Virus record (IMG/VR): IMGVR_UViG_2534682002_000024
Source: a virus
Taxonomy: Duplodnaviria; Heunggongvirae; Uroviricota; Caudoviricetes
DNA: 40,622 bases
Strand: one strand, 5' to 3'
The position numbers and the translations under genes were made by a program. Position 1 is the first letter of the stretch; every line of letters starts with the position of its first letter. Shown in pieces: positions 1 through 40,622 of the stretch. The notes beneath the pieces were generated by a model, which was given only the letters and a program-made list of their open reading frames with translations, ran no database searches and had not been told where the DNA came from.

Positions 1-1251
1 CTACGCTAAACCAATAAAGAACCCGGCAATGGTGGCACTCATCAGGTTAGAAAGTGTCGCCGCCGCCAGCGCGCGTAAACCAAGCTGGGCGATTTCCGGC
101 GCACGGTGTGGCGCAACCGCAGAAAACGCCCCCACCACCACCCCGATAGAACCAAAGTTAGCGAAACCGCACAACGCGAAGGAAATAATCGCCACGGTTT
201 TAGCATCCAGAGTGCCAGCCGTTTGCAGATAGGGTGAGAAATTGAGATAAGCGACAAATTCATTTATTGCCAGTTTCTGTCCAATCAAACTCCCGGCAAG
301 ATTCGCATCACTCCAGTCAACACCCATTACCCACGCCAGTGGGGCCAGCAGATAACCTACAATGGACTCCAGCGAGGCATGTTCAAAACCAAACCAGCCG
401 CCAACGCCGCCGATAATACCGTTAATTAACGCAATGATGGCGACGAATGCCATCACTACTGTCGCCACACCTGCGGCGATTTTCAGCCCGGTCATTGCCC
501 CTGTCGCGGCGGCTTCAATAATGCTTTTTGGCGGTGTTTCGGTGAAAGAGAGGTTATTAAAAGAAACCTGCGAAGATTCCGTAGCCGGGCTTAGCAGGCG
601 GGCAAACAAGATCCCCCCGGGGATCGCCATTAACGATGCCGCCAGCAAATATTCCACAGGCACGCCCAGTGCGGCATAACCAATCATTGTCGAACCAGCA
701 ATCGAGGCCATGCCGCTACAAATCGCTGTAAATAATTCATTGCGATTCAGCCGATCGATAAAGGGCTTCACAATCGCCGGAATTTCGTTTTGCCCGAGGA
801 AAATGGTAGTGACCGCGACGAATGACTCAATCTTGCTGATATTTAATGCTTTCTGGAATATACCGCCGAGAATGCGAATTAAAATCCCCATCACACCGAT
901 GTAGTAGAGAATACTCACCAGTGCAGTGACGAAGATAATTGCCGGTAATACCCTGAAACCAAAGATAAATCCTGCGCCATCAAATAAGGTGTCCATTTTC
1001 GGTCCGACCAGAGAACCGAAGATAAATGCGCTACCCGCGTCGCTGTACGCCATCACTTTATGCACACCAAAAGCGACTTTTTCAGCGACCCAACGCCCTG
1101 GCGGTAACCAAAGCATAATGCCGCCAATCACGACCTGTAACACTAACGCCGCGCCAACGGTACGCAGGCTGATCTTCTTCTTGTTTACTGACAGTAAAAA
1201 CGCAATCGTCAGCAATACCACCATTCCCAGAACACTTCTCATGACATCCAT
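1..1251 (-). CDS. NupC-family concentrative nucleoside transporter (host gene, 3' end runs off window start)
   Basis: 416-aa multi-pass membrane ORF whose N-terminus MDVMRSVLGMVVLL and overall profile match enterobacterial CNT transporters (NupX/PsuT type); recognised from memory, paralog not resolved. Confidence 0.85.
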   Translation of the reverse strand: MDVMRSVLGMVVLLTIAFLLSVNKKKISLRTVGAALVLQVVIGGIMLWLPPGRWVAEKVAFGVHKVMAYSDAGSAFIFGSLVGPKMDTLFDGAGFIFGFRVLPAIIFVTALVSILYYIGVMGILIRILGGIFQKALNISKIESFVAVTTIFLGQNEIPAIVKPFIDRLNRNELFTAICSGMASIAGSTMIGYAALGVPVEYLLAASLMAIPGGILFARLLSPATESSQVSFNNLSFTETPPKSIIEAAATGAMTGLKIAAGVATVVMAFVAIIALINGIIGGVGGWFGFEHASLESIVGYLLAPLAWVMGVDWSDANLAGSLIGQKLAINEFVAYLNFSPYLQTAGTLDAKTVAIISFALCGFANFGSIGVVVGAFSAVAPHRAPEIAQLGLRALAAATLSNLMSATIAGFFIGLA

Positions 1252-2566: not shown

Positions 2567-2599
2567 GGCCGCATAACCTCCTGCTTTGTTGTTGATGCC

Positions 2600-2790
2600 T
2601 TTCTCATGCAATCGATCGACAAAAACGATCGATTCGATTTGTTTAATTGATACAACAAATAGATTGAAAAGTCATCAACAATGATTCAGGTAGGTGATTA
2701 TTTACTTAAAGAAAACGAAGAGTTAGGTGGTGAAAACGATCATAAAATGATCATTTTATTGACTTTTTATATAGTGAAGGTAGGATCGCG
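2600..2790 (-). promoter_or_regulatory. GATC-rich candidate Dam/OxyR-regulated mom promoter region
   Basis: Five GATC sites (2614, 2627, 2738, 2749, 2784) within about 175 bp upstream of com in AT-rich DNA. Mu Pmom is controlled through clustered Dam sites. Confidence 0.4.
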
Positions 2791-2979
2791 CGTATATGTA
2801 GTATGTTTCAAATCAATGGGATACTACATACATAAAGAGCGACCCAGATAGCGCGAACTATTCTGGGCCGATTTAGACAATTTTGCATCAATGCTTTACT
2901 TCGAGCTCGTGGCGTATCCTATGATATTCCCCAGTCTCCTGTAAAGCAGAGATGCATAAAAAGGAGATCTTTATCATGG

Positions 2980-3649: not shown

Positions 3650-3795
3650 ATAACCTTACCTTTGATATTGACTACATAATTCGTTATCGGGTAAAAACAT
3701 CGAAGCGACTGATAACTACTCCTTCGGTAGTATTTTTATTTTCCTTTATGGGTTAGGTAGCTCCCGCCAGCCGTATCATGACCGGCGGGATTTTT

Positions 3796-5835
3796 TTATT
3801 CTGTTACCGCTTTTTTCACTTCCACCACAATGCTGTCAATCAGCACCGGGTAAGTTGCATTTTTGGTGATATCCGTTACGCGGAGTTTGTCCACCGGGAA
3901 AGTTCCTACTGGTGACTGCGTCAGGGTAAACGCGGCACCATCCTGACCATCAATAACCGGAATAACCTGAAGGCTGTTATTTCCTGCAAAACGGAAGGCC
4001 AGCGTATGCCATTCATTATCAAATGCACCAAAGGTTCCCAGTTTCTGGTTATTTGTTGCCACTTTTGCATTGTGGTACATCACATTCAGGTCTTTTGCGT
4101 CTGTCTGGATGTAGAACGATGCCAGCAGATTATTCCCTGCATCCCCTGTCAGGGTGACACCCTGCGGCAGAGAGGAAACCGGCCAGTAAAGCGCCATGAC
4201 ATACTGGTTTGCCACCAGGTCGCCAGGTACTTTAAAACGACAACTGATTAAACCACCATTTTTCAGCAGTTCAGCACCAGTACCGGCATCATGATCCAGA
4301 TACCAGGATGATTTACCTGTTTCCTTGGTCAGTTTCATTGCCTTACCACCTGTGCCTCCTGCATCACTGATAATTTCAGCTTTACCGCCAGCCGGCTCCC
4401 AGCCCTGGGCTTTCAGATTTCCTTCTGACTCACTGACACGGTAAGACAGCAGTGTTGTGGTTACTGCTTCAGTTTCTGAAGGTGACGGCACTGGTGCTTC
4501 AGTTTCAGAAGATGGAACATCGGCTTTTACTGTGGTTCGCCCTGCATGAGTCAGAACAGCCGTGGCCAGACGGTCAGAAATAATACCCCGGCGCGCCCAG
4601 GCACTGAAATGGCTGGCCCGGTCCGCAGATGTCCAGGTAGCGGCACTGTTACGCCACGTTGAGCCGTAATAACCAATGGATTCAATATCCGGGTCTTCTG
4701 CCGGATTGTTGGTGGGTACATTCACGCCATTTTCATCTGTCATTAATGGAACGAAATGAATGTTTTTATCTGTTTTGTTTTTGTAGCCGCCATAGATTGC
4801 CTGGTATGCTGGTTCATTTTTCTGTTTCCAGAAATACGTGGTATCGCCACAAATCCACGGAACGCCAGCAGCACTGCCACCGGTACACTGTTCCGCCTGT
4901 TCAGCCAGGTCTGCGCGGAATTTTTCCACCATCGCCAGAAACAGCGCAGAATGCTCCGTCGGCTTCGCATCAATATCAAACTCGCCCTGCATCCACACCA
5001 CAGCAAGCAGGCGGTTTTTCGGGTTCTTCGCCAGTGCCGCTTTTGTCCGGCTGATTAAGTCCTTATACAGCGGCTTATCCACACCCCAGCGGGCTGAGTC
5101 CTCTGAAGCACCCGTGCTGTCACTGTACGTGCCGTCAGCACCCGCCGTGAATGCAGAACCACCACGGCAGCAGGGAACCAGCAGAATCCCCGCATCTGCC
5201 GGAATAAACGGCAGCAGTTTTTTGGCAATGTGAAGCCCCTGACCCACGGTGCCATATTGCCCTTTAGCCACATCCGCTTTCGGGTGATTTTTTCCACTCA
5301 TATCCTGCACATCATGCAGACAGTGGTCGGCCAGAATGATGTCGTTATACTGACAGGCTTTACCTCCCGGCGTGACTGTACTGCGACGGGCTAACTGCAT
5401 AATACGCGGTTCGGGGCGGTCATATGTCTCCGGCAGTGGCAGACCTTCACCGTAAGCCATACCGTTTGACTGACCAGCAAGAACCACCACGTAATACCAG
5501 GAAGGGGAGCTGGAAGCAGTTTCATTTCCTGACGGACGGGTATGTGTTTCAGCATTATCCCAGTCTGACGGTTCAGCAGTACCGGCAACATCAGCACTTA
5601 ACGGAATGACCGCACCAATACCCGCTCCGGTAATTTCCACACTCGGATCACCGGATACTGGCCTTACCCACAGGCAATCCCGTGTATTAAAACTGATGAG
5701 ACAGTCAGCAAATGTCATTCCTCCTTTTGTTTCGGCCGGAGGAAAGGGAGCCTCAAGAAATGCCGCTGTACCACCGGAAACTTTAACAGTAAAGTTTCCG
5801 GGCATTGATGATAGTTGAACCCATTTGGACGTCAT
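3796..5835 (-). CDS. 679-aa SGNH/SASA-type carbohydrate esterase with lectin-like beta-sandwich C-terminal domain (cargo gene)
   Basis: VVVLAGQSNGMAYGEG carries the GQSN motif typical of sialate O-acetylesterase-like (SASA/DUF303) SGNH hydrolases. No N-terminal signal peptide. An S/T/P-rich linker precedes a C-terminal region that looks like a concanavalin/laminin-G type domain. It occupies the gin to com-mom interval. Confidence 0.6.
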   Translation of the reverse strand: MTSKWVQLSSMPGNFTVKVSGGTAAFLEAPFPPAETKGGMTFADCLISFNTRDCLWVRPVSGDPSVEITGAGIGAVIPLSADVAGTAEPSDWDNAETHTRPSGNETASSSPSWYYVVVLAGQSNGMAYGEGLPLPETYDRPEPRIMQLARRSTVTPGGKACQYNDIILADHCLHDVQDMSGKNHPKADVAKGQYGTVGQGLHIAKKLLPFIPADAGILLVPCCRGGSAFTAGADGTYSDSTGASEDSARWGVDKPLYKDLISRTKAALAKNPKNRLLAVVWMQGEFDIDAKPTEHSALFLAMVEKFRADLAEQAEQCTGGSAAGVPWICGDTTYFWKQKNEPAYQAIYGGYKNKTDKNIHFVPLMTDENGVNVPTNNPAEDPDIESIGYYGSTWRNSAATWTSADRASHFSAWARRGIISDRLATAVLTHAGRTTVKADVPSSETEAPVPSPSETEAVTTTLLSYRVSESEGNLKAQGWEPAGGKAEIISDAGGTGGKAMKLTKETGKSSWYLDHDAGTGAELLKNGGLISCRFKVPGDLVANQYVMALYWPVSSLPQGVTLTGDAGNNLLASFYIQTDAKDLNVMYHNAKVATNNQKLGTFGAFDNEWHTLAFRFAGNNSLQVIPVIDGQDGAAFTLTQSPVGTFPVDKLRVTDITKNATYPVLIDSIVVEVKKAVTE

Positions 5836-5934
5836 AATAATCAGCCTGTTCCTGAATAAACTGAATTATCATATCCACAGACCGATAAACGCCATTTTGC
5901 GTTAATTCAGTAAAGGCCCAACAAAGAGAGCGTC

Positions 5935-20800: not shown

Positions 20801-21924
20801 TATTGCATTTCCTCTTTCATTTTCAGGAACTCGGCTTCGGTTTTACCCAGCAGTTTGGCGGCCGCGATATCTTCAGCCGACAGCACAGCGGTGGCAGTCT
20901 TTTTATCCGGCACGGTCACGGTGTCGGTCTGAAGGCCGGTCAGGGCCGCAACCGGCTGGCGGGCGTCAAGCTGTGCAGAAAGTGCCGCCACGCCAATCTG
21001 CCCGCCCAGTTGTTCCAGATAGCCGCGTTCACTTTTGAAGATGCGTCCTTCGGACTCGGCCTTGTCCAGCAACTGCTCCAGCGTGGTGCTGCCGTGCTGC
21101 GCCGACAGCGCAACGTATTCGGTACGCAGGGCGTTATACGTTTCAACGGGCACGTATTTCGTCAGGTCAATACTGCCGCCAGCCGGTGTGCCTTTTGCAG
21201 TTTCCAGCTCTGCCGACAGACTGGCGACCTGTGTTTTCAGGTTGTCGTGTGCATCCGCACGGGTTTTGATCCCGGTGAGGGCAGACAGCGCTGCCGTGCC
21301 CAGCTCCGGCGTAAATTCGTCACCGTCAGCCACGGTCAGACCGAGCGCCGTCAGCAACTGGCGTAATTGCTCATTCATGGAGGTATCCTTTAAAGGAGGG
21401 TTTAAGGCGTTATAAAGGTCATCCGCCGACAGTGCGGCGACAGGATTCATGCCGGTCAGACCGGGGTCACCGGTAATAGCCAGCATCCGAAGTTCGACAG
21501 GTTCGCCGGTGCTCTCGTCATAGCCAATCACCGGTGAAAACCAGGGGAATTCGTTATTACGCAGATGTTCAAGGGCCGGAGGGTTCCACTTCGGGCGCAC
21601 CTCGAAACCTCGCTCTTCACTGAAGCGAAAATTCTCCGGTGAGGCCATCACAAAACCGGCAGCCGGTGCCGGATGTCCCTCAATCAGGGTCTGGTGGTTG
21701 TAGTCAATTTTCACCGGCTGATTGAGCGCCACAACACGGGAGACCATGCGCTCAACGGCTGCATGGTTGATCAGCCAGCCCTCGGCCGGTTTTTCCGGGC
21801 GACCGTCACGGGCCTTTACCCGACCGGCTGGCATGATCTGACACCAGTCACCGTCCCCGTCTGCGGACAGGCTGATGGCATTCAGAATGGCATAAGCAAG
21901 TTTGGGCGTGTTTTTCGTCTTCAT
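20800..21924 (-). CDS. Head protease/scaffold protein, Mu I-like
   Basis: 374 aa with coiled-coil, Ala-rich C-terminal half typical of scaffolds; immediately upstream of the capsid gene. Confidence 0.75.
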   Translation of the reverse strand: MKTKNTPKLAYAILNAISLSADGDGDWCQIMPAGRVKARDGRPEKPAEGWLINHAAVERMVSRVVALNQPVKIDYNHQTLIEGHPAPAAGFVMASPENFRFSEERGFEVRPKWNPPALEHLRNNEFPWFSPVIGYDESTGEPVELRMLAITGDPGLTGMNPVAALSADDLYNALNPPLKDTSMNEQLRQLLTALGLTVADGDEFTPELGTAALSALTGIKTRADAHDNLKTQVASLSAELETAKGTPAGGSIDLTKYVPVETYNALRTEYVALSAQHGSTTLEQLLDKAESEGRIFKSERGYLEQLGGQIGVAALSAQLDARQPVAALTGLQTDTVTVPDKKTATAVLSAEDIAAAKLLGKTEAEFLKMKEEMQ

Positions 21925-22100
21925 TCCGGCAGCATAGGCCGGGAATTTTCAGGGCGGGTTTTGCGGGATTTCAGGAAGTGCTTTCAGGGGAAAAATACAA
22001 AGGCGCTTCACGCAGATTTTAAAGCCCGTTAAATTCAGGTTAGAAAATCACGACACGCGCCTGAAGGGGGTAAGGTAATGCATTTGCATACCTTAAACAA

Positions 22101-27847: not shown

Positions 27848-28138
27848 TTACCCCCTTGCGCGTGGTTTCTTCACACCCGGAACGCTGGCGCGGCCTTCCG
27901 CCACATCCTGCCCCCGGCCGGTCAGTTCCGCGATGAAATAACCGTTAATCAGAACGCGTTTGCGCACCAGTCCCTGCTCGGCAAGCCAGGCAATGTGGGT
28001 GTGAACGGTGTCGCGGGACACGCGGTGGCCGTAATCATCCAGACAGTCCTGGAGCACGGATTCACCCAGTTCACCGTTGTAATCTGCCAGCGACCGCAGA
28101 ATGACCAGACGCTGATCTTCAGTAATGAAATTACTCAT
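27848..28138 (-). CDS. Mu gp26-like protein
   Basis: 96-aa ORF, conserved position. Confidence 0.45.
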   Translation of the reverse strand: MSNFITEDQRLVILRSLADYNGELGESVLQDCLDDYGHRVSRDTVHTHIAWLAEQGLVRKRVLINGYFIAELTGRGQDVAEGRASVPGVKKPRARG

Positions 28139-28442
28139 TCGTTTTTTTCCTTACCGCCTGCTCCAGCAGCAGTTCGTTCTGATAGGAGACAGAGCGGAGC
28201 GTGGCGTTCGTGGTTTTCAGTTCACCCCGCAGGGTCACGATTTCCACATTCAGACGGTTGACCTCAGCTTCTGTCGGCAGTGACGACAGGCGGGTTTCCA
28301 CCTTCTCAACGCGGTCGGAGAGTTTTTCAAAGGCCTCGCGGGGGACAAACGTTTTGCGCATCAGCGCCATGAATATCCCGCCAGCGGTTGCCGTCGCCGA
28401 AAGGATCGGCACAACATAATCTTTAACGATGCTGACCCACAT
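28131..28442 (-). CDS. Mu gp25-like membrane protein (possible releasin-type lysis factor)
   Basis: 103 aa with one N-terminal TM segment (VVPILSATATAGGIFMALM) and a coiled-coil tail; located in the lysis region. Confidence 0.5.
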   Translation of the reverse strand: MWVSIVKDYVVPILSATATAGGIFMALMRKTFVPREAFEKLSDRVEKVETRLSSLPTEAEVNRLNVEIVTLRGELKTTNATLRSVSYQNELLLEQAVRKKTNE

Positions 28443-28650
28443 GACGGGCCTCCATGATGTTCTGGCAGTTCACACAACGGATGGCATCCGGCACAGCAAC
28501 AAGACGTGCGGCGGGGATCTCTCCGCCACAGTCCGCGCAGACACGTCTGCCCGGAGCATCCATTGCCCGGCGCTTACGTGTCAGCCGGTTACAAAGGGCG
28601 CGTTCTGATCCCCGCTCCATCACAGCCTGAGCACGATCTGAATCATCCAT
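28423..28650 (-). CDS. TraR/DksA-family C4 zinc-finger protein
   Basis: CADCGGEIPAARL...IRCVNCQ is a C4 zinc finger of TraR/DksA type. Start placed at ATG 28650 (MDDSDRAQ), which has an AAGGA RBS. Confidence 0.7.
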   Translation of the reverse strand: MDDSDRAQAVMERGSERALCNRLTRKRRAMDAPGRRVCADCGGEIPAARLVAVPDAIRCVNCQNIMEARHVGQHR

Positions 28651-28660
28651 ACCTTTTTCC

Positions 28661-29032
28661 TTACTTCGTCTTTCCTGCCGGAACAGCAGGCGTTCCGGCC
28701 ATATCAGTAAATTCATGTTGTCGCCGCGCCTCCAGACGACGAATACTGGCCTTGTCCACGTTGCAGTTCTTGATCACCGCCAGCAGTTGCAGGTTGTAAG
28801 TGACCGATGCCCCAAACGTGAACGGCTCCGGCACAGGAGGGACCAGGCAGTCAGCCAGCCATTCAGCGGGGATCGGCACCGGCTTCACAGGCACGTATTT
28901 CACAGACGGCCCGGCGCACCCGATCAGCCACATCATCAGGAACAGGGGCAGAGGCCGCAGGCACCGCTGCCAGCGACCGGCGGACAACGCTCTGCTGTCC
29001 CTCGCTGTGCTGAATGTTCTGTTGTTTTTCAT
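28661..29032 (-). CDS. Putative o-spanin (outer-membrane lipoprotein spanin subunit)
   Basis: Lipobox LIGC after a hydrophobic segment, proline-rich mature part, and an overlapped out-of-frame arrangement with the upstream i-spanin candidate. Start codon uncertain. Confidence 0.5.
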   Translation of the reverse strand: MKNNRTFSTARDSRALSAGRWQRCLRPLPLFLMMWLIGCAGPSVKYVPVKPVPIPAEWLADCLVPPVPEPFTFGASVTYNLQLLAVIKNCNVDKASIRRLEARRQHEFTDMAGTPAVPAGKTK

Positions 29033-29363
29033 TCGTGGCCGCCTCACTGATTTGTGAAATGAGTTGCAGGGTGTGCTGCTGATTTGCCAGCACCTGACGC
29101 GCCTCATCCCGCTCACGCACAAGCACCTGATTATTGTCTTCAAGGCGCTGCGTCTTCTGGTGCATTCCCCATATCGCGGCAACCAGTACAGCGATAATCC
29201 CCAGCGCCGCCATGCACGCCCCGGCAATCAGGGCCGGTAAGGCATTATTCACCGCAGCCACAGGACACCCCGTAACAGCAGTACCGCACACAGCAGCGCT
29301 ATCATGAGCGGTCGCCAGAAGCGGTTCAGACTTTCGGCAAGTCGTAGCGACATAACCATTCAT
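28863..29363 (-). CDS. Putative i-spanin (inner-membrane spanin subunit)
   Basis: TM segment (ALPALIAGACMAALGIIAVLVAAIW) followed by a coiled-coil periplasmic region; directly after the endolysin. Start codon uncertain. Confidence 0.5.
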   Translation of the reverse strand: MNGYVATTCRKSEPLLATAHDSAAVCGTAVTGCPVAAVNNALPALIAGACMAALGIIAVLVAAIWGMHQKTQRLEDNNQVLVRERDEARQVLANQQHTLQLISQISEAATNEKQQNIQHSEGQQSVVRRSLAAVPAASAPVPDDVADRVRRAVCEIRACEAGADPR

Positions 29364-29826
29364 CCGCCGAACGGCGGGCCTCAAGGCCGGGGAGTTTCAC
29401 CCCCTTTGAATAAATCCAGCGGATATACTGCTTACAGGACGCGGGCATCTGCCCGGCATTGATCAGGCGCAGAAGCGTGGAGTTGCGGAAGTTCGTTTCA
29501 CCGGCCCAGAAGATCCACGAAGCCAGCGCCACAGTCTGACCACGGGTAAGCGGCACCTGAACACGCCGATCAATGGCCGCAAAGGCCCATTTCATGTCCT
29601 TTTCCAGTAGTTCCAGGCATTCTTCATCCGTCAGGGTCATACCCGGTTTCACATCCGGGCCGGTATGGCCGTAACAGATGGTGGGTGTACCGGTGGGATC
29701 GATATACGTGGAGTTTTCTTTCCCTTCCCAGTAACCGGTGTAATGCGTGGCAATCGTGAACGTCCCGGCACCGGCCAGAACAAGGGCAATCAGCTTTTTA
29801 CGCAGTGGTGCGGGGAGTTTTGGCAT
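29326..29826 (-). CDS. Endolysin, phage lysozyme family with N-terminal signal-anchor-release type hydrophobic segment
   Basis: Hydrophobic segment LIALVLAGAGTFTIA at the N-terminus, then a lysozyme-like body. No holin gene was recognised nearby. Confidence 0.75.
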   Translation of the reverse strand: MPKLPAPLRKKLIALVLAGAGTFTIATHYTGYWEGKENSTYIDPTGTPTICYGHTGPDVKPGMTLTDEECLELLEKDMKWAFAAIDRRVQVPLTRGQTVALASWIFWAGETNFRNSTLLRLINAGQMPASCKQYIRWIYSKGVKLPGLEARRSADEWLCRYDLPKV

Positions 29827-29897
29827 TGTTACGCTGTCTCATGATGTTCTCTGAGTCAGCGTAACGGTGAAGGAAAGGCGGCAGGCTTTGCGGAATA

Positions 29898-30323
29898 TCA
29901 GAAAAGTGGCGGTTGCGTTCTTGCCAGATGCAGACGGCGCTGTTCACGTATGACGGTATAAATCTGGGTTTCTGACATCCGGTAATGGCGGCGAAGGGAT
30001 TCAATTTTCTCGCCCCGGTCCCAGCGCGAAAATATCTCATTGTTTCGCAGCTCGGCAAAGAGAGATTCCCCGACCGGCAGGTAATAACCCCGTCCGCCCA
30101 TATAGGCTGCCTGAGCCGCAGCCACCTTGCGTGCCAGTTTACCGGCCAGTACCGGCTCAATCCCCTGACGCTGAAGTTCTGCGCCGGTGACTTCAACCAG
30201 TTCTGACAGGGTCCGCGGCCAGTTCTTTTTGAGAACATCATCAGGGATGTCATCAAGGCGGTCGATAAGGGCGTGCAGTTGCTCACTGTCACCACCAAAC
30301 ATGCTCATCTGAGTTTCTGCCAT
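29898..30323 (-). CDS. Mor/C-family transcriptional activator
   Basis: 141 aa; the C-terminal part (GRGYYLP ... IYTVIREQRRLHLARTQPPLF) parallels Mu Mor as I recall it. Whether it is the Mor or the C equivalent is not resolved. Confidence 0.7.
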   Translation of the reverse strand: MAETQMSMFGGDSEQLHALIDRLDDIPDDVLKKNWPRTLSELVEVTGAELQRQGIEPVLAGKLARKVAAAQAAYMGGRGYYLPVGESLFAELRNNEIFSRWDRGEKIESLRRHYRMSETQIYTVIREQRRLHLARTQPPLF

Positions 30324-30354
30324 ATCAGCCTCCGGTTCTCACGTTCCCGGTAAG

Positions 30355-30386
30355 TTTAAAATAAAAATCCCGCGTTGTGGCGGGAT
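30355..30386 (-). terminator. Intrinsic terminator downstream of gemA-like gene
   Basis: Hairpin ATCCCGC-gttgtg-GCGGGAT (30367-30386) followed on the minus strand by a T-rich run (TTTTTATTTTAAA). Confidence 0.5.
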
Positions 30387-30392
30387 TTGGGG

Positions 30393-30902
30393 TTAACGGG
30401 GAAGTGATTTTTCATACTGCCTGCAAACGGCGTCATACCCCATCAGCGTGCGTTCGGGCATTCCCATCGCGGCCAGCATTTTGCGGCGGTGCCATCGCTT
30501 GAGACGCTCCAGCACATCTGAGGCCAGGGCGGGGTGTTGCTCCAGCCACTGCCAGTTTGCCACACCTTCGCCGCCGTTCTGCGCGGCCGTCTGCGATTTC
30601 ACCCAGCGGTTAAGGGCGGTTTCCGCACCATCGGTGATAAAGCCCTGCCGGAGCATCACCTTCCAGATGGCGCGAATTTTGGCGGTCACCGTACCCGGTT
30701 TTAAGGCCCGGTTAACCGGGTTCTGACGCACTTTAAAACCGCGTTTTTTGAAAACATCCAGCACGCGGGATAACTCATCCGGTGACATATCCCGGCAGCT
30801 GGTTTTGCCGGTGGCTGCCAGCAGCGCGGATGTATAAGTCTCATCATCCAGGGCAAGCTCGCGCTTTGCCACATGAATGGCGGATATCAGTTTTCCTCTC
30901 AT
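30393..30902 (-). CDS. GemA-like protein (Mu gp16 family)
   Basis: 169 aa; sits immediately upstream of the Mor/C-type gene as gemA does in Mu. Confidence 0.65.
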   Translation of the reverse strand: MRGKLISAIHVAKRELALDDETYTSALLAATGKTSCRDMSPDELSRVLDVFKKRGFKVRQNPVNRALKPGTVTAKIRAIWKVMLRQGFITDGAETALNRWVKSQTAAQNGGEGVANWQWLEQHPALASDVLERLKRWHRRKMLAAMGMPERTLMGYDAVCRQYEKSLPR

Positions 30903-31195
30903 ACCGTATTTACCTTTTTACGGACATGGAAAGCCTTTTCTGCCTCATCCCACCGGGCATGGTGTGTTGGTGGAATAATCATTATGTGCCAGCCATCTCT
31001 GGTTGTTATCCGGCAGAAAAATTCACCGCTATATAACACAATGGCCTGCTGAATGAGCGCATCAGCCGCCCGTTCAACCGGATGTCTTTTATCAAAAAAG
31101 CAGATGATTTTTCGACATAACCACCGGGTAATAACAAATGCGCCGAAAAAGGATGTGATATATAAGCACCAGAACAACAGAGAACTATTGTCCAT
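30899..31195 (-). CDS. Hypothetical membrane protein (one N-terminal TM helix)
   Basis: 98-aa ORF; hydrophobic segment LLFWCLYITSFFGAFVI. Confidence 0.45.
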   Translation of the reverse strand: MDNSSLLFWCLYITSFFGAFVITRWLCRKIICFFDKRHPVERAADALIQQAIVLYSGEFFCRITTRDGWHIMIIPPTHHARWDEAEKAFHVRKKVNTV

Positions 31196-31382
31196 TATCT
31201 TTCTCCTTATTCACTCTTCTGCGGCATTCGGCACAGTCATCAGGGCTTTCAAATGTATCCGGCTCGCGATTATGAGCCAGATATAACCACCGTCCACATA
31301 TACTGATATTTTCGCCTGTTTTAAAAAAATGATGCTTCCTGGCCATTAGTGGCCGCGCCCATCCAGCGGGTAGACTATTCAT
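31185..31382 (-). CDS. Hypothetical 65-aa protein with possible Cys-based metal-binding motif
   Basis: Short ORF in the co-oriented early operon, containing ICGRW ... DDCAEC. Confidence 0.4.
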   Translation of the reverse strand: MNSLPAGWARPLMARKHHFFKTGENISICGRWLYLAHNREPDTFESPDDCAECRRRVNKEKDNGQ

Positions 31383-32115: not shown

Positions 32116-32399
32116 CAGTGCGTCACCTGTCCGTCCTCATCTTCAAGGCAGGCTCCGGTTTCTTCATCAATAAAAAAGCCTTCATACCCCATATGGCCGA
32201 TGCGCAGTTCCTGTTGGTCACCATACTGAACAATCAGCACGACAGCCTCCATATCAGGCGGAAATGCGTCATCCAGTGAATGCCAGGGATAACCGCGCAA
32301 ATCCCCGAAATAAACACCGGTCAGCGTTCCGCCACAAACCGACATTCCGGCGACACATACCAGAGGCTCGTCTGATTCAACAAATAATGTCGTTATCAT
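32088..32399 (-). CDS. Hypothetical strongly acidic early protein (candidate DNA mimic)
   Basis: 103 aa with about 19 Asp/Glu against 2 Arg and no Lys, clustered as DEETGACLEDEDGQ; translationally coupled to the upstream gene. Confidence 0.45.
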   Translation of the reverse strand: MITTLFVESDEPLVCVAGMSVCGGTLTGVYFGDLRGYPWHSLDDAFPPDMEAVVLIVQYGDQQELRIGHMGYEGFFIDEETGACLEDEDGQVTHWCHISALPE

Positions 32400-32947
32400 G
32401 GCATTAACTCCCGTAATACAACATCTTCGGCAGTCCGGCGATGGTGATAAATAAAATTCACCGTACTCTCGGATAATTCAAATTTCTCGCCTATTTCCCG
32501 GAAGGTAAGACGTCGTGGTGATTCAGCATCCCGTAATTCACGAATAAGATGAACATCATCATCAGGTATACGGGTGAAGGGCAGCAACTCTCCGTATTTT
32601 TTCATGCTTACGCCAATATATCGCGCCCGTTTGTGGACAGAATCCCGGTCTCGCCCCAGATATTCTCCTATTTGCTTACCGGTCATCGTTCTGGCATTTT
32701 TTCGGATAAATTTATCTTCATCATGTTTAAATCTTGGACGTTTGCATTTGAGCAACTCCGGGTAAGTACCGCGTAATAAAACAATCCGGTTATGTACACC
32801 CCAGAAACTTCTTTTTACCCTGACAGCAATATCCTTAACCGGGGTGGATGGATAAAGCGCAATCAGCAGTGCATCTTCTTCAGGTGTCCACGCACGGACA
32901 TGAGCGGGTGCACGGCCTTTTCGCCCCATGGGTTGTAAAATCATCAT
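32396..32947 (-). CDS. Hypothetical early protein with SANT/Myb-like WTPEEDALL motif and C-terminal HTH-like segment
   Basis: 183-aa ORF containing AWTPEEDALLIALY and LTFREIGEKFELSESTV. Confidence 0.45.
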   Translation of the reverse strand: MMILQPMGRKGRAPAHVRAWTPEEDALLIALYPSTPVKDIAVRVKRSFWGVHNRIVLLRGTYPELLKCKRPRFKHDEDKFIRKNARTMTGKQIGEYLGRDRDSVHKRARYIGVSMKKYGELLPFTRIPDDDVHLIRELRDAESPRRLTFREIGEKFELSESTVNFIYHHRRTAEDVVLRELMP

Positions 32948-36301: not shown

Positions 36302-36529
36302 TTAGCTGACTTGTTTCGCACCAACAGAACGGCATATTCCGCTGTAAACTTCTGTCGCACCTTCGCGATCAAGTCCGGCAGATATCACCATTCGTGTGCG
36401 GTCATTAAATTCAAAAAGTAAATCGCCACATTCTTTATTTTCGGCCAGTGAAATCACCTTCACGTTATCGAAATTAACCAGGTAAAAGCGTCCGTAAATA
36501 TCAGGAATATAAAATACCGCCATAATCAC
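36302..36529 (-). CDS. Small protein at the Mu kil position
   Basis: 75 aa, immediately downstream of B; Mu Kil is about 74 aa. Assignment is positional only. Confidence 0.4.
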   Translation of the reverse strand: MIMAVFYIPDIYGRFYLVNFDNVKVISLAENKECGDLLFEFNDRTRMVISAGLDREGATEVYSGICRSVGAKQVS

Positions 36530-37458
36530 ACCTGTGAGAGTAATTCAGGGTTGGTATAAACCTCTTTAAAGGCCGCATTAATATGTTTTTCTGTCAGCGC
36601 CGCACCTTCACCGCTGGCGGTGAGCCACGCCTGGTTAAGCGTATGTGTCAGAACGCGTAACGCTCCCGGCTTTTCAGCGATAGCCTGCATGACGGCCAGC
36701 TCGGCCTCACCACTGATACCCCATGCCCTGGCAATGGCCAGCACATCCGCCTTTTTGGCCTTGCGAAGTTGTTTTGTACGGGCAAGACGGCTGAACAGGC
36801 GCGATAAATCATCAAAGGCGCGGCGTCCACCTTTAAACAATCCGCGCGGGTTACCAATAAGCACCATCCCGATCCCCGTGGCGTCCTGAATTGCCCGGAG
36901 TTGCTCCAGACCGTCAATACCAAGATGATCCGCCTCATCCACAATCACCAGTCCACGCGTTCCCATCAGGCGACGGCGGATGGCGCGGGATAATGCCCCT
37001 TTGTTCGCGCGGGTGTAATCAATCCCCAGCGCATCGGCCAGCTCCAGCAGACACTCCGTGACGCTGGAGTGCGCGGGTGACAGGGTGATCATCCAGGTGT
37101 TTGGTTGCTCCTGGCAGTAATTACGGGCAGTGGCCGTTTTACCCACACCCGGTACGCCCACAATAACGTTAATACAGCCCATCAGACGAACCGCCTGAAA
37201 CAGTGCGCGCAGCTCCTGGACTGTCTGCGTTTCCACAAACTGCGGCGGTTCCGGCAGTGCGCTTTGTTTATTCCAGTTCTCATACCAGGAACGCAGGGAA
37301 GCAGCCACAGCAGCGTTATCGCCTTTATATTTTCCCTTACGGAAAGCCGATAATGTGCCGTCGGAAATTCCCGCCTCTCTGGCGATGGCATACTGCGTCA
37401 GTACGCCGCCATCAATAAGTTCATCAATGGTCTTGATTACATCGTTAATATCAGTCAT
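36526..37458 (-). CDS. B: DNA transposition protein B (AAA+ ATPase)
   Basis: 310 aa with Walker A GVPGVGKT; N-terminal HTH-like region; directly downstream of the transposase. Mu B is 312 aa. Confidence 0.85.
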   Translation of the reverse strand: MTDINDVIKTIDELIDGGVLTQYAIAREAGISDGTLSAFRKGKYKGDNAAVAASLRSWYENWNKQSALPEPPQFVETQTVQELRALFQAVRLMGCINVIVGVPGVGKTATARNYCQEQPNTWMITLSPAHSSVTECLLELADALGIDYTRANKGALSRAIRRRLMGTRGLVIVDEADHLGIDGLEQLRAIQDATGIGMVLIGNPRGLFKGGRRAFDDLSRLFSRLARTKQLRKAKKADVLAIARAWGISGEAELAVMQAIAEKPGALRVLTHTLNQAWLTASGEGAALTEKHINAAFKEVYTNPELLSQV

Positions 37459-37529: not shown

Positions 37530-39620
37530 TCAGGCCAGCGGGTCATTTTCTTTTAATTTCGCTTCCAGCAACTGCAATCCCCGCTGGAAATTACGCTCGT
37601 ATTCTTCATCAGGTTCATCGTCAGCGACCGGTTGCTGAACGATCACCGCATTACCCACAGGGCGATAGATGTTTTCCAGCCATGGCTCCTGCTGCTTGTG
37701 CTCCAGCACGTTGACCACCTCATCCTCGGCATCACGGATTTTTTCCTCTGCGCGTTTACGCATGCCTTTAAGGCGTTGCTGCTGTTTGTAGTATTCCGCG
37801 CTGACCGGGAAGGCTTCGCGTTTATTGCCGCCCCATACCGCCTCGCAAATCACGCTGCCATCCAGGCGACGTACGGTAATTCGTTCGGCATCATGAATGT
37901 CATAGCTGATAAGCACCTTGCGGCCATGCTCATCACGCAGCTCGGGAGCGTAGTAAATATTATTCAGCCAGCGTATTTCACAGCGTCTTACAGGGCGTTC
38001 CACCATCGGCCGGAACATATCCCGCAGCTCAACATCGGACAGCCATTCAATTTCCGTGTCCTCTTCCGCCAGGCGTTTTTTTCTGAACTCCGCCGGGCTG
38101 TAATGCTTGCCGTTCGGTTTTATGGGTAATTCATCGTGCGGCCGGTTGTTGTACCACTCAACACCATCACGAATGGCATCAATCAGTTCAGCCCAGGACG
38201 GTAAATCACGCATCGCTGACTGCTGCCGGGCGTTCAGCCGTTTGCCCTGTTGCAGGGCACTGAATGCCGAGCGTAAATCGCGGTTGGTTTTACGTAACGT
38301 CTCGCGATCTGCACCTTTCCCGAAATAGGTGCGGTATTTACGGGCTATGCGCATCGGTAATGTGCGGTTAAGCCGTTCGATAATGCCCCGTCCCTGCGGG
38401 TTACCGGCAATCCCTGTCGGGTGATTAATCCCCAGTCGCGGCAGAATCCCCACAACTTCCTTATCCAGGATGTCGGCGGTTTCCCCGGAACCGTTATCCG
38501 AGTAATACAGAAACGGTTTGCCGTGATTACGAATACCGTGCTGTATGGCACCGGCTACGGCGAAAACATTTTCAGCCAGGTCAAGGCTCCAGCCCACCAC
38601 AAAGCGCGTGCCACCGTCGATAACAAAGGTCACTTCCGGTGCAAATGGCCGCCCGTGAACCGGGTGCCTGCATTTCAGCTTCATGCCGTGACCGTCACCA
38701 ATCCAGACATAATTCACCGGCATTTTTGACCAGTCGCGGCGCGTGAATCCCTCAAGCTGGCGATATTCACTGCCGGTCACCCGGCCTTTTTGTTTCACCA
38801 CTTCCGGCAGTTTCTTCATTGCGCGGCGAATGGTGTCATAAGACGGCATGATATCGAGCATATAAGGCTCATCAGCGTGCCGGTGCTGCCATTCAGCGAC
38901 AAAATCCTCGTAGGCCTCGGTCATTGGTCGGCCGTTTGACTGGCGATACTGCGCCAGAAATTCGGGCAGCCAGTTAATATCTTCGGCTTTTATTTCCTGG
39001 CGCTTACCCGGTGCCAGCAAAAGCAGGCGTTCGGCGGCGTTCTGCGCCTTGTTAAAGGCTGCAATCCAGCGTTTCAGCGTGATTTCACTCAACGCACGGC
39101 TGTTTCCCTTTTTGGCGTTCGCCGTCTCAACCATTGCCACAATGCGCTCGTCCAGCTGCGAACGTGCCAGGTTGTCAACGATAAACCGGATAGCTTTCGC
39201 ACAGCTGAAACCGGGTTGTTGCGCGACTTTCATCACTTCGCTGACGATCGCGATTCGTGCATCAGCCACCTGGCGCTGGTTTTCAGTCAGGGCATTAAGG
39301 CGTTCAACCATCAGTTGTGGTGATCCGCGATATGCCTCCACCGCATCAACCACGGCAGGCGAGCGTCTGGCCTTTGTCACCACCGGAGCCGGTGATTCAT
39401 CGGCTTTTTGCGTCATCAGTTGCAGGGCGTAGCGTTCACGTAATGCCTGCTGCGTCACTTCAGGTAAACAGTCGATACTGTATTCAGTTGCTTTAGAGCC
39501 TGAGCGACGACGGGAACAACAGCTTTTCCCTTGTACGTAACGTTGTAATGCCTGGCGAATACCTTTTGTTGTAGCAGGCATTCCGGGCGCGCCAATCAGT
39601 TCTTTTGCAATGACATACAT
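37530..39620 (-). CDS. A: Mu-type DDE transposase A
   Basis: 696 aa following ner; N-terminal DNA-binding region, central RNase H-like region, C-terminal charged domain. Size matches MuA (663 aa). Confidence 0.85.
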   Translation of the reverse strand: MYVIAKELIGAPGMPATTKGIRQALQRYVQGKSCCSRRRSGSKATEYSIDCLPEVTQQALRERYALQLMTQKADESPAPVVTKARRSPAVVDAVEAYRGSPQLMVERLNALTENQRQVADARIAIVSEVMKVAQQPGFSCAKAIRFIVDNLARSQLDERIVAMVETANAKKGNSRALSEITLKRWIAAFNKAQNAAERLLLLAPGKRQEIKAEDINWLPEFLAQYRQSNGRPMTEAYEDFVAEWQHRHADEPYMLDIMPSYDTIRRAMKKLPEVVKQKGRVTGSEYRQLEGFTRRDWSKMPVNYVWIGDGHGMKLKCRHPVHGRPFAPEVTFVIDGGTRFVVGWSLDLAENVFAVAGAIQHGIRNHGKPFLYYSDNGSGETADILDKEVVGILPRLGINHPTGIAGNPQGRGIIERLNRTLPMRIARKYRTYFGKGADRETLRKTNRDLRSAFSALQQGKRLNARQQSAMRDLPSWAELIDAIRDGVEWYNNRPHDELPIKPNGKHYSPAEFRKKRLAEEDTEIEWLSDVELRDMFRPMVERPVRRCEIRWLNNIYYAPELRDEHGRKVLISYDIHDAERITVRRLDGSVICEAVWGGNKREAFPVSAEYYKQQQRLKGMRKRAEEKIRDAEDEVVNVLEHKQQEPWLENIYRPVGNAVIVQQPVADDEPDEEYERNFQRGLQLLEAKLKENDPLA

Positions 39621-39621
39621 A

Positions 39622-39870
39622 TCATGACGCCTTTCTCATATAGCTCTTAACCTGGTATCGACTGGGCCAGATTTCTTCAGGCGATACCCCAAGAGCATCA
39701 GCAATTATTTGCTGATACGGTCGGCAAGGAGTACGTAATACGCTTTTCAGCGAATCCCTGCTGTAACCAGCCTTTAAAGATAAAGAGCGCAGTGATAAGC
39801 CAGCCATGTGTAAGCGCGCCTTGATGATTTCAGGCGGCCAATCGTGATCTGAAACTTCTCTTCTACTCAT
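39622..39870 (-). CDS. ner: Ner-like DNA-binding regulator
   Basis: 82 aa; ...QQIIADALGVSPEEIWPSRY matches the Ner/Nlp signature (EQIIANALETKPEVIWPSRY in Mu, from memory). GAGGAAG RBS upstream. Confidence 0.8.
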   Translation of the reverse strand: MSRREVSDHDWPPEIIKARLHMAGLSLRSLSLKAGYSRDSLKSVLRTPCRPYQQIIADALGVSPEEIWPSRYQVKSYMRKAS

Positions 39871-40037
39871 ACTTCCTCTATTCTAAAAAGTTACCCGCGC
39901 GGATATTCGTGCGGATATCTGTACGGGTAAATAATAGAACAAACAAAAGAACCAGATCAAGGTATTTTGTTCTTTTTATTCTTTGTAGTGTTTTTGTTAT
40001 TAATATCAATAAGATAAATACAAAGGAACCTGAGAGC
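39871..40037. promoter_or_regulatory. Divergent c/ner control region with candidate operator dyad
   Basis: 39-bp element TTACCCG-cgcGGATATtcgtGCGGATATctgta-CGGGTAA (39891-39929) has 7-bp inverted arms and two direct GCGGATAT copies; AT-rich DNA follows. Confidence 0.5.
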
Positions 40038-40622
40038 ATGAACATGAAAAACAGTTCTTTTCTCGACGAAGGAAAAGAACCAGTGATCGAACGGATTTTT
40101 CGTCTTGCAGAGCGTTACAAATCGAGAAGTGAGGCGGCTAGAGCATGGGGAATAAACGTTCAGACATTGCAGAACTACTACAAAAGGAGAAACAATCAGC
40201 CGCCACCACAACCAAGAAAGCACCATCTCCAGAACATTGCAGAAAGAGAACATGTATCTATGGAGTGGCTAGTCCATGGTTATGGTGATGAGCCAAGCAT
40301 GAAAAAAGAACCAATTGAACAAGCAAAAAGAACAAAAAAACAAAGAATTGATGATAGTGATTCCATCATCATGAGGGCGTGGGACTCGCTAACTTCATCT
40401 GAACAAGAGATTTTGTCCAACTTATTGATCAGAAAAGGGGCCGAACTACTAACCGTTTTGCTTGATACAGATATTCAAAAACTGCACTCATTGAGCGGAG
40501 TCAAAAGAGCACTAGCATTGAGTCTACAAGAGTTACCCGATGATACTGTAAGAGAGATTTATGAAGAATGTGAAGCTAAGGTTAATCATTTAAATGTAAC
40601 CCAGAAAAAGGCTAGTGCGTAA
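40038..40622 (+). CDS. Putative c-type repressor (divergent from ner)
   Basis: Start placed at ATG 40038 (AGGAA RBS upstream), giving 194 aa, near Mu repressor size (196 aa). N-terminal HTH-like segment RSEAARAWGINVQTLQNYYKR. Divergent orientation to ner. Confidence 0.55.
   Translation: MNMKNSSFLDEGKEPVIERIFRLAERYKSRSEAARAWGINVQTLQNYYKRRNNQPPPQPRKHHLQNIAEREHVSMEWLVHGYGDEPSMKKEPIEQAKRTKKQRIDDSDSIIMRAWDSLTSSEQEILSNLLIRKGAELLTVLLDTDIQKLHSLSGVKRALALSLQELPDDTVREIYEECEAKVNHLNVTQKKASA

Follow-up and report, generated by a model that had tools for sequence, protein, structure and literature searches.

In Mu, the activator Mor switches on the middle promoter Pm, and the activator C switches on the promoters of the late genes (Plys, PI, PP and Pmom). 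A preliminary description of the Mu-like E. coli prophage studied here listed only one gene of the Mor/C family, separated from gemA by an intrinsic terminator and followed directly by the endolysin gene lys, which raises the question of whether the late genes can be switched on by a single protein in a simplified regulatory cascade. The window, which means the whole stretch of 40,622 nucleotides that was analysed, is an essentially complete prophage with very little lying outside, because it extends from a host nucleoside-transporter gene via mom and com to ner and the c repressor gene. From ner on, the prophage reads on the minus strand. Gene B is followed by about 20 small early genes, including gam and a gp11-like gene, and past this early block the order is gemA, one Mor/C gene, lys, the lysis and packaging genes, the head and tail genes, gin, an esterase gene and com/mom (Table 1). 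The early, lysis, head, tail, gin, com and mom genes of the usual Mu type are all intact in the window. The endolysin is 39% identical to Mu gp22 from residue 1, and its N-terminus aligns with the signal-arrest-release endolysin of Mu. Gene I, the protease/scaffold gene (Pfam Mu-like_Pro), aligns with Mu I from residue 9, and this alignment supports its ATG at position 21924. Of 5426 complete E. coli genomes, 231 have copies of the region (at least 80% of a 1651-bp query), and in 152 of them the identity is 99% or more. O157:H7 and O111 strains are among these genomes, and in two Stx-converting phages the region is annotated as part of a Mu-like phage that has been inserted there. An Rfam scan of positions 29000-31200 with E-values up to 1 matched no family.

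Table 1 Features of the window discussed in the text (sequences are given in the direction of the feature)
Feature	Position	Strand	Remarks
Host nucleoside-transporter gene	1-1251		window end beyond com/mom
Weaker third candidate late promoter	5868-5910	minus	CTGAATTAACGCAAAATG, 19 nt, TATGAT
Predicted late promoter of gene I	21931-21974	minus	box CTGAAATCCCGCAAAACCCGCC (21974-21953), 16-nt spacer, TATGCT
Winged-helix gp26-like protein	27848-28138		
TraR/DksA-type zinc-finger protein	28423-28716		putative DNA- or polymerase-binding protein
lys, endolysin gene	29326-29826	minus	Pfam Phage_lysozyme, E = 6e-37
Inverted repeat	29828-29865	minus	14-nt arms 29865-29852 and 29841-29828, 13 of 14 paired, 10 nt between
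Predicted lys -10	29858-29863	minus	TACGCT, inside the 5' arm of the inverted repeat
Predicted activator box of the lys promoter	29880-29901	minus	CTGATATTCCGCAAAGCCTGCC, overlaps the TGA stop codon of the activator gene
Mor/C-family activator gene	29898-30323	minus	141 aa; Pfam Mor PF08765, 111.3 bits
Predicted intrinsic terminator	30355-30388	minus	9-bp stem, 6-nt loop, then TTATTTTAAA
-10-like hexamers TATTTT and TAAACT	30363-30358 and 30358-30353	minus	overlapping; candidate activator promoter, no recognisable -35
gemA	30393-30902	minus	Pfam GemA PF06252, E = 3.9e-29; last gene before the terminator
Helix-turn-helix protein	32396-32947		183 aa
B	36526-37458	minus	
Transposase A	37530-39620	minus	
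ner	39622-39870	minus	
c repressor	39909-40622	plus	

The activator gene has a GGAGG ribosome site (30333-30329), and its product covers the full length of the Pfam Mor profile (residues 34-140 against positions 2-107 of 107), for which the cut-off is 24.9 bits. Members of the Mor/C family are small proteins of about 100-150 amino acids with an acidic N-terminal and a basic C-terminal half, and they share the invariant linker GG..Y.P.G, which comprises G70, G71, Y75, P77 and G79 in C (PMC2582627). When the prophage protein is aligned with Mu Mor and Mu C, its residues G76, G77, Y81, P83 and G85 prove invariant, and its N-terminal half carries 8 Lys and Arg as compared to 12 Asp and Glu residues, the C-terminal half 12 as compared to 8. 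A second gene of the family, which would speak against a simplified cascade, was looked for in three ways and none was found in the window. Six-frame searches with phmmer and hmmsearch, for which the window protein, Mu Mor, Mu C (Mu reference sequence AF083977) and an HMM of the three served as queries, scored only the gene at 29898-30323; the next-best match was one of Mu Mor to positions 36305-36544 (E = 0.068, 9 bits), and it was rejected because of an hhalign probability of 0.7%. Pfam scans of the ORFs of the early and lysis regions gave no other match to Mor, and when a Mor/C profile of 46 sequences was compared by hhalign with 24 other small ORFs, the probabilities were 1.7% or less. Thus, the prophage indeed has a single family member. 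The protein is 39% identical to Mu C (105 bits) and 27% identical to Mu Mor (52 bits; 51.6 unrounded). Because a terminator precedes the activator gene, lys comes directly after it and the sequence match to C is the closer one, the gene corresponds to C; the adjacency to lys that had been described is correct, with a gap of 71 bp after the stop codon and no genes in between. Judged by position and sequence, the activator is C-like and the counterpart of Mu C, and the pieces missing relative to Mu are Mor, the middle step and the middle genes E18-E20. The two Mor/C paralogs with a middle operon between them that define a three-step cascade of the Mu type are not found here.

The regions upstream of lys and gene I share a conserved, lineage-specific box, CTGAWRTYCCGCAAADCC-N20-TAYGCT, which is unlike the C box of Mu. 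The two boxes are identical at 18 of 22 positions and TAYGCT follows exactly 16 nt further in both cases. When box and hexamer are counted together, 23 of 28 positions agree, a value that none of 3000 shuffles of the two upstream regions reached (the best shuffles did not exceed 21). Relatives at 84-100% identity keep the box and the hexamer, and the 16-nt spacer varies in sequence but never in length; at lys, TACGCT is invariant and at a fixed distance from the box in 28 of 28 relatives. A conserved box and hexamer separated by a free spacer of fixed length is the footprint that a real promoter would be expected to leave. In the candidate promoters, the box lies at about -50 to -29 and TAYGCT would be the -10, without a -35. 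Mor and C bind to a site centred near -43.5 in promoters that lack a -35, to which sigma-70 polymerase is recruited (PMC2582627). The predicted lys -10 is located 31 nt before the ATG, and TACGCT-GAC-TCAGAGAA around the -10 and the start compares with TAGACT-GCCA-TCAGAGAA at Mu Plys. With TACGCT as the -10, the predicted start of the lys transcript is near 29852-29850. Upstream of gene I, only 6 nt separate the end of the hexamer from the ATG and the mRNA would therefore be almost leaderless, which is unusual. Two other hexamers were considered and rejected: GAAAAT as the -10 of gene I, for which relatives have GAAAAA or AAAAAT, and GAACAT as the -10 of lys, the final T of which is a C in relatives at 84% identity.

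The four late promoters of Mu share the sequence CATAAYCCC with the -10 located 20 nt later, which agrees with the published C site at -43.5 (PMC2582627). A search for CATAAYCCC-N20 followed by a -10, which recovers all late promoters of Mu as well as those of sister clades, gave no match at lys, I or mom in the window, and matches with one mismatch occur only in coding sequence and without a -10. Moreover, the distance from the box 9-mer to the -10 is 28 nt in the prophage as compared to 20 nt in Mu. Binding of the activator to the box is assumed rather than transferred from Mu because both the sequence and the spacing of the box differ. If it does bind, the activator would work like C but with a different specificity. 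One activator that turns on the late genes without a middle step fits the placement of the late-type motif, which is found 3' of the activator gene and upstream of gene I; together with the lack of a second homolog in the window, this supports the earlier suggestion of a simplified cascade.

Mor/C alignment scans of genome and viral contig collections yielded 79 loci, which were scored with profiles for B, GemA, Mor/C, Lys and the small terminase. Of these, 49 extend from B to the small terminase; 34 of the 49 carry a single Mor/C gene and the other 15 a pair. All of the two-gene loci (15/15) belong to close relatives of Mu (identities of at least 75% for C and at least 87% for Mor), and the single-activator loci come from several genera. 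For instance, the activator is 73-75% identical to Mu C in one single-gene clade (L046, L006, L048, L078) and 64-67% identical in single-gene loci of Kluyvera and Erwinia, and Mor is absent from both clades. In the 73-75% clade (L046, L006, L048), CATAAYCCC is found 20 nt before a -10 upstream of lys and I; in the 64-67% clade, the variant box CGGAATCMC is found upstream of lys only and none upstream of I. Because these sister clades without Mor have a C-like activator and Mu-type or variant boxes, a lone C-type protein that drives the late genes is, as far as gene content and motifs tell, the norm of the family and Mu itself the elaborated case. The single-activator layout is indeed ordinary for Mu relatives and has already been noted in print: in the Mannheimia phages 3927AP2 and phiMhaMu2 and in Haemophilus SuMu, lys lies immediately 3' of mor, and middle genes such as C are lacking (PMC4553209). 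SuMu and Burkholderia KS10 have a single Mor each (PMC3447690, PMC2628397). In having one Mor/C gene, these phages resemble the prophage, as they do, in the case of 3927AP2, phiMhaMu2 and SuMu, in having lys immediately downstream (PMC4553209, PMC3447690). However, they infect other hosts and are distant in sequence, and the respective papers call the gene mor and contain no promoter analysis.

Closer at hand are the single-activator prophages of Kluyvera, Erwinia and gut Enterobacteriaceae (L002-L006, L039-L049, L078), which likewise have the gemA terminator, one C-type activator and lys. Unlike the prophage studied here, they have activators with 64-75% identity to Mu C, a terminator that still separates the activator gene from lys and, often, a gene for a small secreted protein between gemA and the activator gene. 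With Mu, the prophage shares the protein family of the activator, the neighbourhood consisting of gemA, the activator gene, lys and the gp25-, gp26- and gp27-like genes, terminators beside activator-dependent promoters, com/mom at the right end and, as predicted here, late promoters with a -10 and an upstream box but no -35. It differs from Mu by having one family member, no E18-E20, another box sequence and a distance from the box 9-mer to the -10 that is 8 bp longer. The terminators are also distributed differently. In Mu, mor overlaps gemA without a terminator, and a terminator and Pm follow mor, whereas in the prophage the terminator precedes the activator gene. Moreover, C is followed in Mu by a terminator, Plys and lys, whereas in the prophage the terminator scan predicted none in the interval from the activator gene to lys.

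The preliminary description also mentioned a 9-bp inverted repeat at 29834-29872 that overlaps the lys leader. The repeat is real, but the coordinates were off by 6-7 bases, as the two 9-mers are GTTACGCTG at 29828-29836 and CAGCGTAAC at 29857-29865. The overlap with the leader holds for the 3' arm, which includes GAGA, the weak ribosome site of lys located 10 nt from the ATG, and stops 1 nt short of the ATG, whereas the 5' arm contains the predicted lys -10. A bare 9-bp repeat is expected by chance several times in 40 kb; the extended repeat ranks among the strongest in the window. As RNA, the repeat folds with -20.1 kcal/mol (z = -5.7). An RNA that begins at 29852 is unstructured (-6.4 kcal/mol, z = 0.15), and in an RNA that begins 18 nt further upstream the full hairpin refolds (-23.6 kcal/mol). 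The repeat is kept in 28 of 28 close relatives, in which the only differences affect one base of the loop and the one stem position that is unpaired. There are no compensatory changes, because no relatives between 49% and 84% identity were found; a protein search for relatives of intermediate divergence returned only those with about 64% identity or more, besides short partial or frameshifted matches.

The absence of a predicted terminator between the activator gene and lys implies that transcripts of the activator gene would run into lys. If the lys transcript starts near 29852-29850, the 5' arm would therefore be promoter DNA that is absent from transcripts of the lys promoter. We propose that the hairpin may mask the lys ribosome site on read-through transcripts and that the late promoter would give an unmasked message. 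In IS10/Tn10, transcripts coming from outside reportedly pair an upstream sequence with the ribosome site of the transposase gene, a fold-back inhibition said to have been described by Davis, Simons and Kleckner in 1985. The logic proposed for lys would be alike in that the 5' arm lies upstream of the gene's own start and only read-through transcripts hide the ribosome site. Unlike in IS10, where element and gene are others, the upstream transcripts would be the phage's own activator mRNA and the role of the device would be timing rather than insulation. The geometry at lys fits the IS10 type provided that the start, which is a prediction, is near 29852, and the relatives contribute no compensatory changes. 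The same device was looked for in distant single-activator clades (Idiomarina type and others), where the next gene abuts the activator gene and the loci are not comparable.

The intrinsic terminator between gemA and the activator gene, which had been noted before, was recovered by the terminator scan as the hairpin AAATCCCGC-CACAAC-GCGGGATTT with five G-C pairs (30388-30365) followed by the T-run TTATTTTAAA, beginning 4 nt past the gemA stop codon. Its RNA folds with a dG of -13.5 kcal/mol (z = -4.1), and none of 200 shuffles folds as well; on paper, the terminator is strong. It lies directly 5' of the activator gene in 27 of 28 close relatives. In two loci with genes inserted after gemA (L023, L030), the hairpin occurs in two copies, the second of which again adjoins the activator gene; in a third locus (L029), an insertion splits the gemA hairpin. 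The T-rich tail contains the -10-like hexamers TATTTT and TAAACT, which are conserved in relatives at 84-88% identity, and in most other clades examined a hairpin is followed by TATACT or TATAAT at the equivalent place. The same holds for most representatives of the enterobacterial single-activator prophages, except for L048, in which the hexamer is kept upstream of the activator gene and no clear hairpin is evident. Moreover, the annotated Pm of Mu overlaps the predicted terminator after mor. Together, these patterns suggest that a -35-less promoter overlaps the terminator 5' of the activator gene. A scan for the sigma-70 consensus detected no promoter at TATTTT/TAAACT. Partial read-through of the gemA terminator is the simplest alternative route to transcription of the activator gene. 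Formation of the hairpin could conceivably be hindered by a ribosome that halts at the stop codon of gemA, which lies 4 nt before the stem.

We favour a model in which the prophage uses a two-step programme instead of the three steps of Mu, including direct late activation and hairpin masking of lys, and we give it a probability of roughly 55%. Early transcription from the left end would run via A, B and the accessory genes to gemA, where the terminator would stop most of it. A small share of the transcription would reach the activator gene, either by read-through of the terminator or from the weak -35-less promoter (TATTTT/TAAACT) in the T-rich tail. The activator would then directly switch on late promoters that consist of the box CTGAWRTYCCGCAAADCC, a 16-nt spacer and TAYGCT without a -35, one of which, with its box over the activator stop codon, would drive lys and another gene I. 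Transcripts that carry the activator gene would enter lys, but the 14-bp hairpin would bury the ribosome site so that no endolysin is made early; transcripts of the lys promoter would start inside the hairpin, lack the 5' arm and have a free ribosome site. In this model, we infer the binding of the box by the activator, the transcript starts, the route of activator expression and the translational masking, and the conservation of the hairpin region could reflect constraints on the promoter and ribosome site alone. A more tentative version, possible but in our view doubtful, holds that the C-lys terminator of Mu was replaced by a promoter-within-hairpin device and that the gemA terminator may in addition contain an activator half-site, which would make the locus an autoregulated commitment switch.

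The direct role in late activation could be disputed in two ways. The single protein might be a Mor-like middle regulator, with the true late activator being unrelated, for instance the TraR/DksA-type protein, the gp26-like protein or the helix-turn-helix protein of 183 amino acids (Table 1). The gene directly follows gemA, as mor does in Mu, and several small putative DNA- or polymerase-binding proteins are encoded nearby. However, the score against C is twice that against Mor, a terminator intervenes at the place where mor overlaps gemA in Mu, and the gene is immediately upstream of lys, as C is. Moreover, the same motif stands before lys and I, 8 kb apart, as sites of a late activator would look, and Mu also has a gp26 homolog yet needs C. 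All this makes a Mor-like role very unlikely. It is even harder to believe that the prophage descends from a Mu by decay, in which a deletion removed mor or C and the late programme can no longer run. Many prophages in these strains are indeed defective (PMC2669165), but the Mu-like prophage Sp18 of O157 Sakai was judged intact in the same work (PMC2669165), the usual Mu-type gene set is complete in the window, the one-activator layout recurs in 34 of the 49 loci from B to the small terminase and in several genera, and the region is kept in the 231 E. coli genomes, mostly (152) at 99% identity or more.

The two hairpins can also be read differently. At lys, the repeat might be a DNA-level operator for a repressor over the -10 and the start, or it might do nothing more than contain the promoter and the ribosome site. 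From the predicted -10 it extends to about +24, a position typical of repressors, promoter and translation signals could explain all of its conservation, and covariation that would support an RNA structure is lacking. On the other hand, the arms, 14 nt each and 10 nt apart, would be long ones in a protein operator, and elsewhere in the window their sequence is not found above chance, so that there is no regulon. Furthermore, the RNA fold is very stable in comparison to shuffles, the two positions that vary among the relatives are exactly the unpaired ones, and the absent terminator between the activator gene and lys creates a need for masking. We thus consider this reading of the repeat unlikely and retain the masking hairpin. 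Somewhat less improbable, yet still doubtful, is positive autoregulation of the activator, in which the gemA hairpin would be both terminator and activator binding site and read-through would prime a switch-like commitment. Its 5' arm AAATCCCGCC agrees with the 3' half of the late box (AAADCCYGCC) at each of 10 positions and lies at a distance of 15 nt to TATTTT, as compared to 16 nt to TAYGCT in the late promoters, and this match hints at autoregulation. The hairpin and the -10-like hexamer stay with the activator gene even where genes have been inserted after gemA, the stem CCCGCC...GCGGG is kept across clades with activators that are only about 45% identical to that of the window, and the annotated Pm of Mu likewise overlaps a predicted terminator. 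However, the upstream half of the box is absent, aligning the 9-mer gives 23 nt to TAAACT and not 28, and the sigma-70 consensus scan shows no promoter there. The 9-mers at the position expected for a C box upstream of the activator gene in Mu-C-like clades (GAAATACCG, ATTATTCCC, AATATCGTG, ACAATCCCG, CCCGTCCCG) are inconsistent and dissimilar to the C box of these clades, and such GC-rich stems are generic in terminators. The stem sequence AAATCCCGC is also unspecific: with up to one mismatch it is enriched in the window (27 matches as compared to 13 expected), and it was dropped as a stand-alone activator site as the majority of its copies fall into coding sequence or another terminator and lack a -10.

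The comparison places the Mor-to-C relay of Mu as the exception among its relatives, with a single C-type activator being common even at 75% identity to Mu C. The prophage type is widespread in Shiga-toxin-producing E. coli and also inserts into Stx phages, and the late box and the lys hairpin could show how the timing of lysis is set without a middle step. The present analysis adds the C-like identity of the protein, a predicted lineage-specific late-promoter box and the proposed promoter-within-hairpin device at lys; the current understanding of the Mor/C protein family is unchanged by these results.

On the gene strand, a relaxed search for the box gave two strong copies only, those at lys and gene I, and no counterparts of Mu PP and Pmom beyond a weak site at 5910. 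This third candidate has five mismatches to the 18-nt box and is suggestive only, because shuffled sequence gives about 2.5 matches per strand at six or fewer mismatches. It is located downstream of gin and upstream of the esterase gene, and this position flanking gin is where Pmom sits in Mu.

The right end of the prophage carries a gene between gin and com/mom whose product combines a sialate O-acetylesterase-type SASA domain with DUF6645. Mu lacks such a gene at the equivalent place, whereas the prophage in the window has one, and it is a cargo gene. It is preceded by a weak candidate late promoter (5910-5868). Directly downstream of the gene, AAATCCCGCC is found again as one arm of a hairpin (3755-3795). 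This hairpin looks like a terminator for transcription of the plus strand because, when read on that strand, the stem-loop is followed by TTTTTTATT. Upstream of com, the palindromes AATCGATCG/CGATCGATT are located at 2610-2634. Mu mom is under Dam/OxyR control, and the GATC clusters and palindromes of this region are reminiscent of that arrangement. No activator box was found in the region upstream of com (2567-2800).

Features of the prophage (window coordinates) and of related Mu-like loci (prefix L)
Feature	Location	Strand	Context or evidence
GATC-site clusters and palindromes	2567-2800	-	upstream of com; sequence
679-aa protein, SASA domain and DUF6645	3796-5835	-	gin on one side, com/mom on the other
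TraR/DksA-type C4 zinc-finger protein	28423-28716	-	Pfam E = 7.7e-12
Sigma-70-like site, ATAACA + 17 nt + CATAAT	30981-31009	-	~80 nt upstream of gemA
183-aa early protein	32396-32947	-	several sub-threshold helix-turn-helix matches
Small gene, sister clades	L046:9472-9924, L006:9464-9925, L003:9483-9920, L005:9487-9810		gemA terminator, small gene, activator

Two further proteins are putative regulators. The gene for the TraR/DksA-type protein is a member of the lysis/late cluster. Since proteins of this family have been reported to bind RNA polymerase, it could modulate host or phage transcription. The 183-aa protein is a possible extra early regulator, its helix-turn-helix matches being of the AsnC type and to sigma-70 region 4 and lying near the C-terminus; a comparison with Mor/C by hhalign revealed no relationship.

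In Mu, gemA has an annotated semi-early promoter upstream, and the sigma-70-like site of the prophage, which falls within the ORF preceding gemA, is reminiscent of it. In the stretch just ahead of the protease/scaffold gene I (21925-21936, minus strand), the predicted -10 hexamer TATGCT of the I promoter ends 6 nt before the start codon, which would imply that the I mRNA is leaderless or nearly so.

In some relatives at 84-88% identity, inserts of about 0.7 kb are flanked by two copies of the gemA hairpin, the intrinsic terminator downstream of gemA (L023:2563-3356, L030:8828-9546), and these inserts contain an ORF on the opposite strand. Moreover, the hairpin of another locus is split by a 1.5-kb insertion (L029:8486-10001) with GCCACAGCGCG present at both sides. 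In the sister clades, which are single-activator loci, the N-terminus of the small gene's product resembles a signal peptide, and the protein also contains a conserved KKDPASGFWTCNGI motif.
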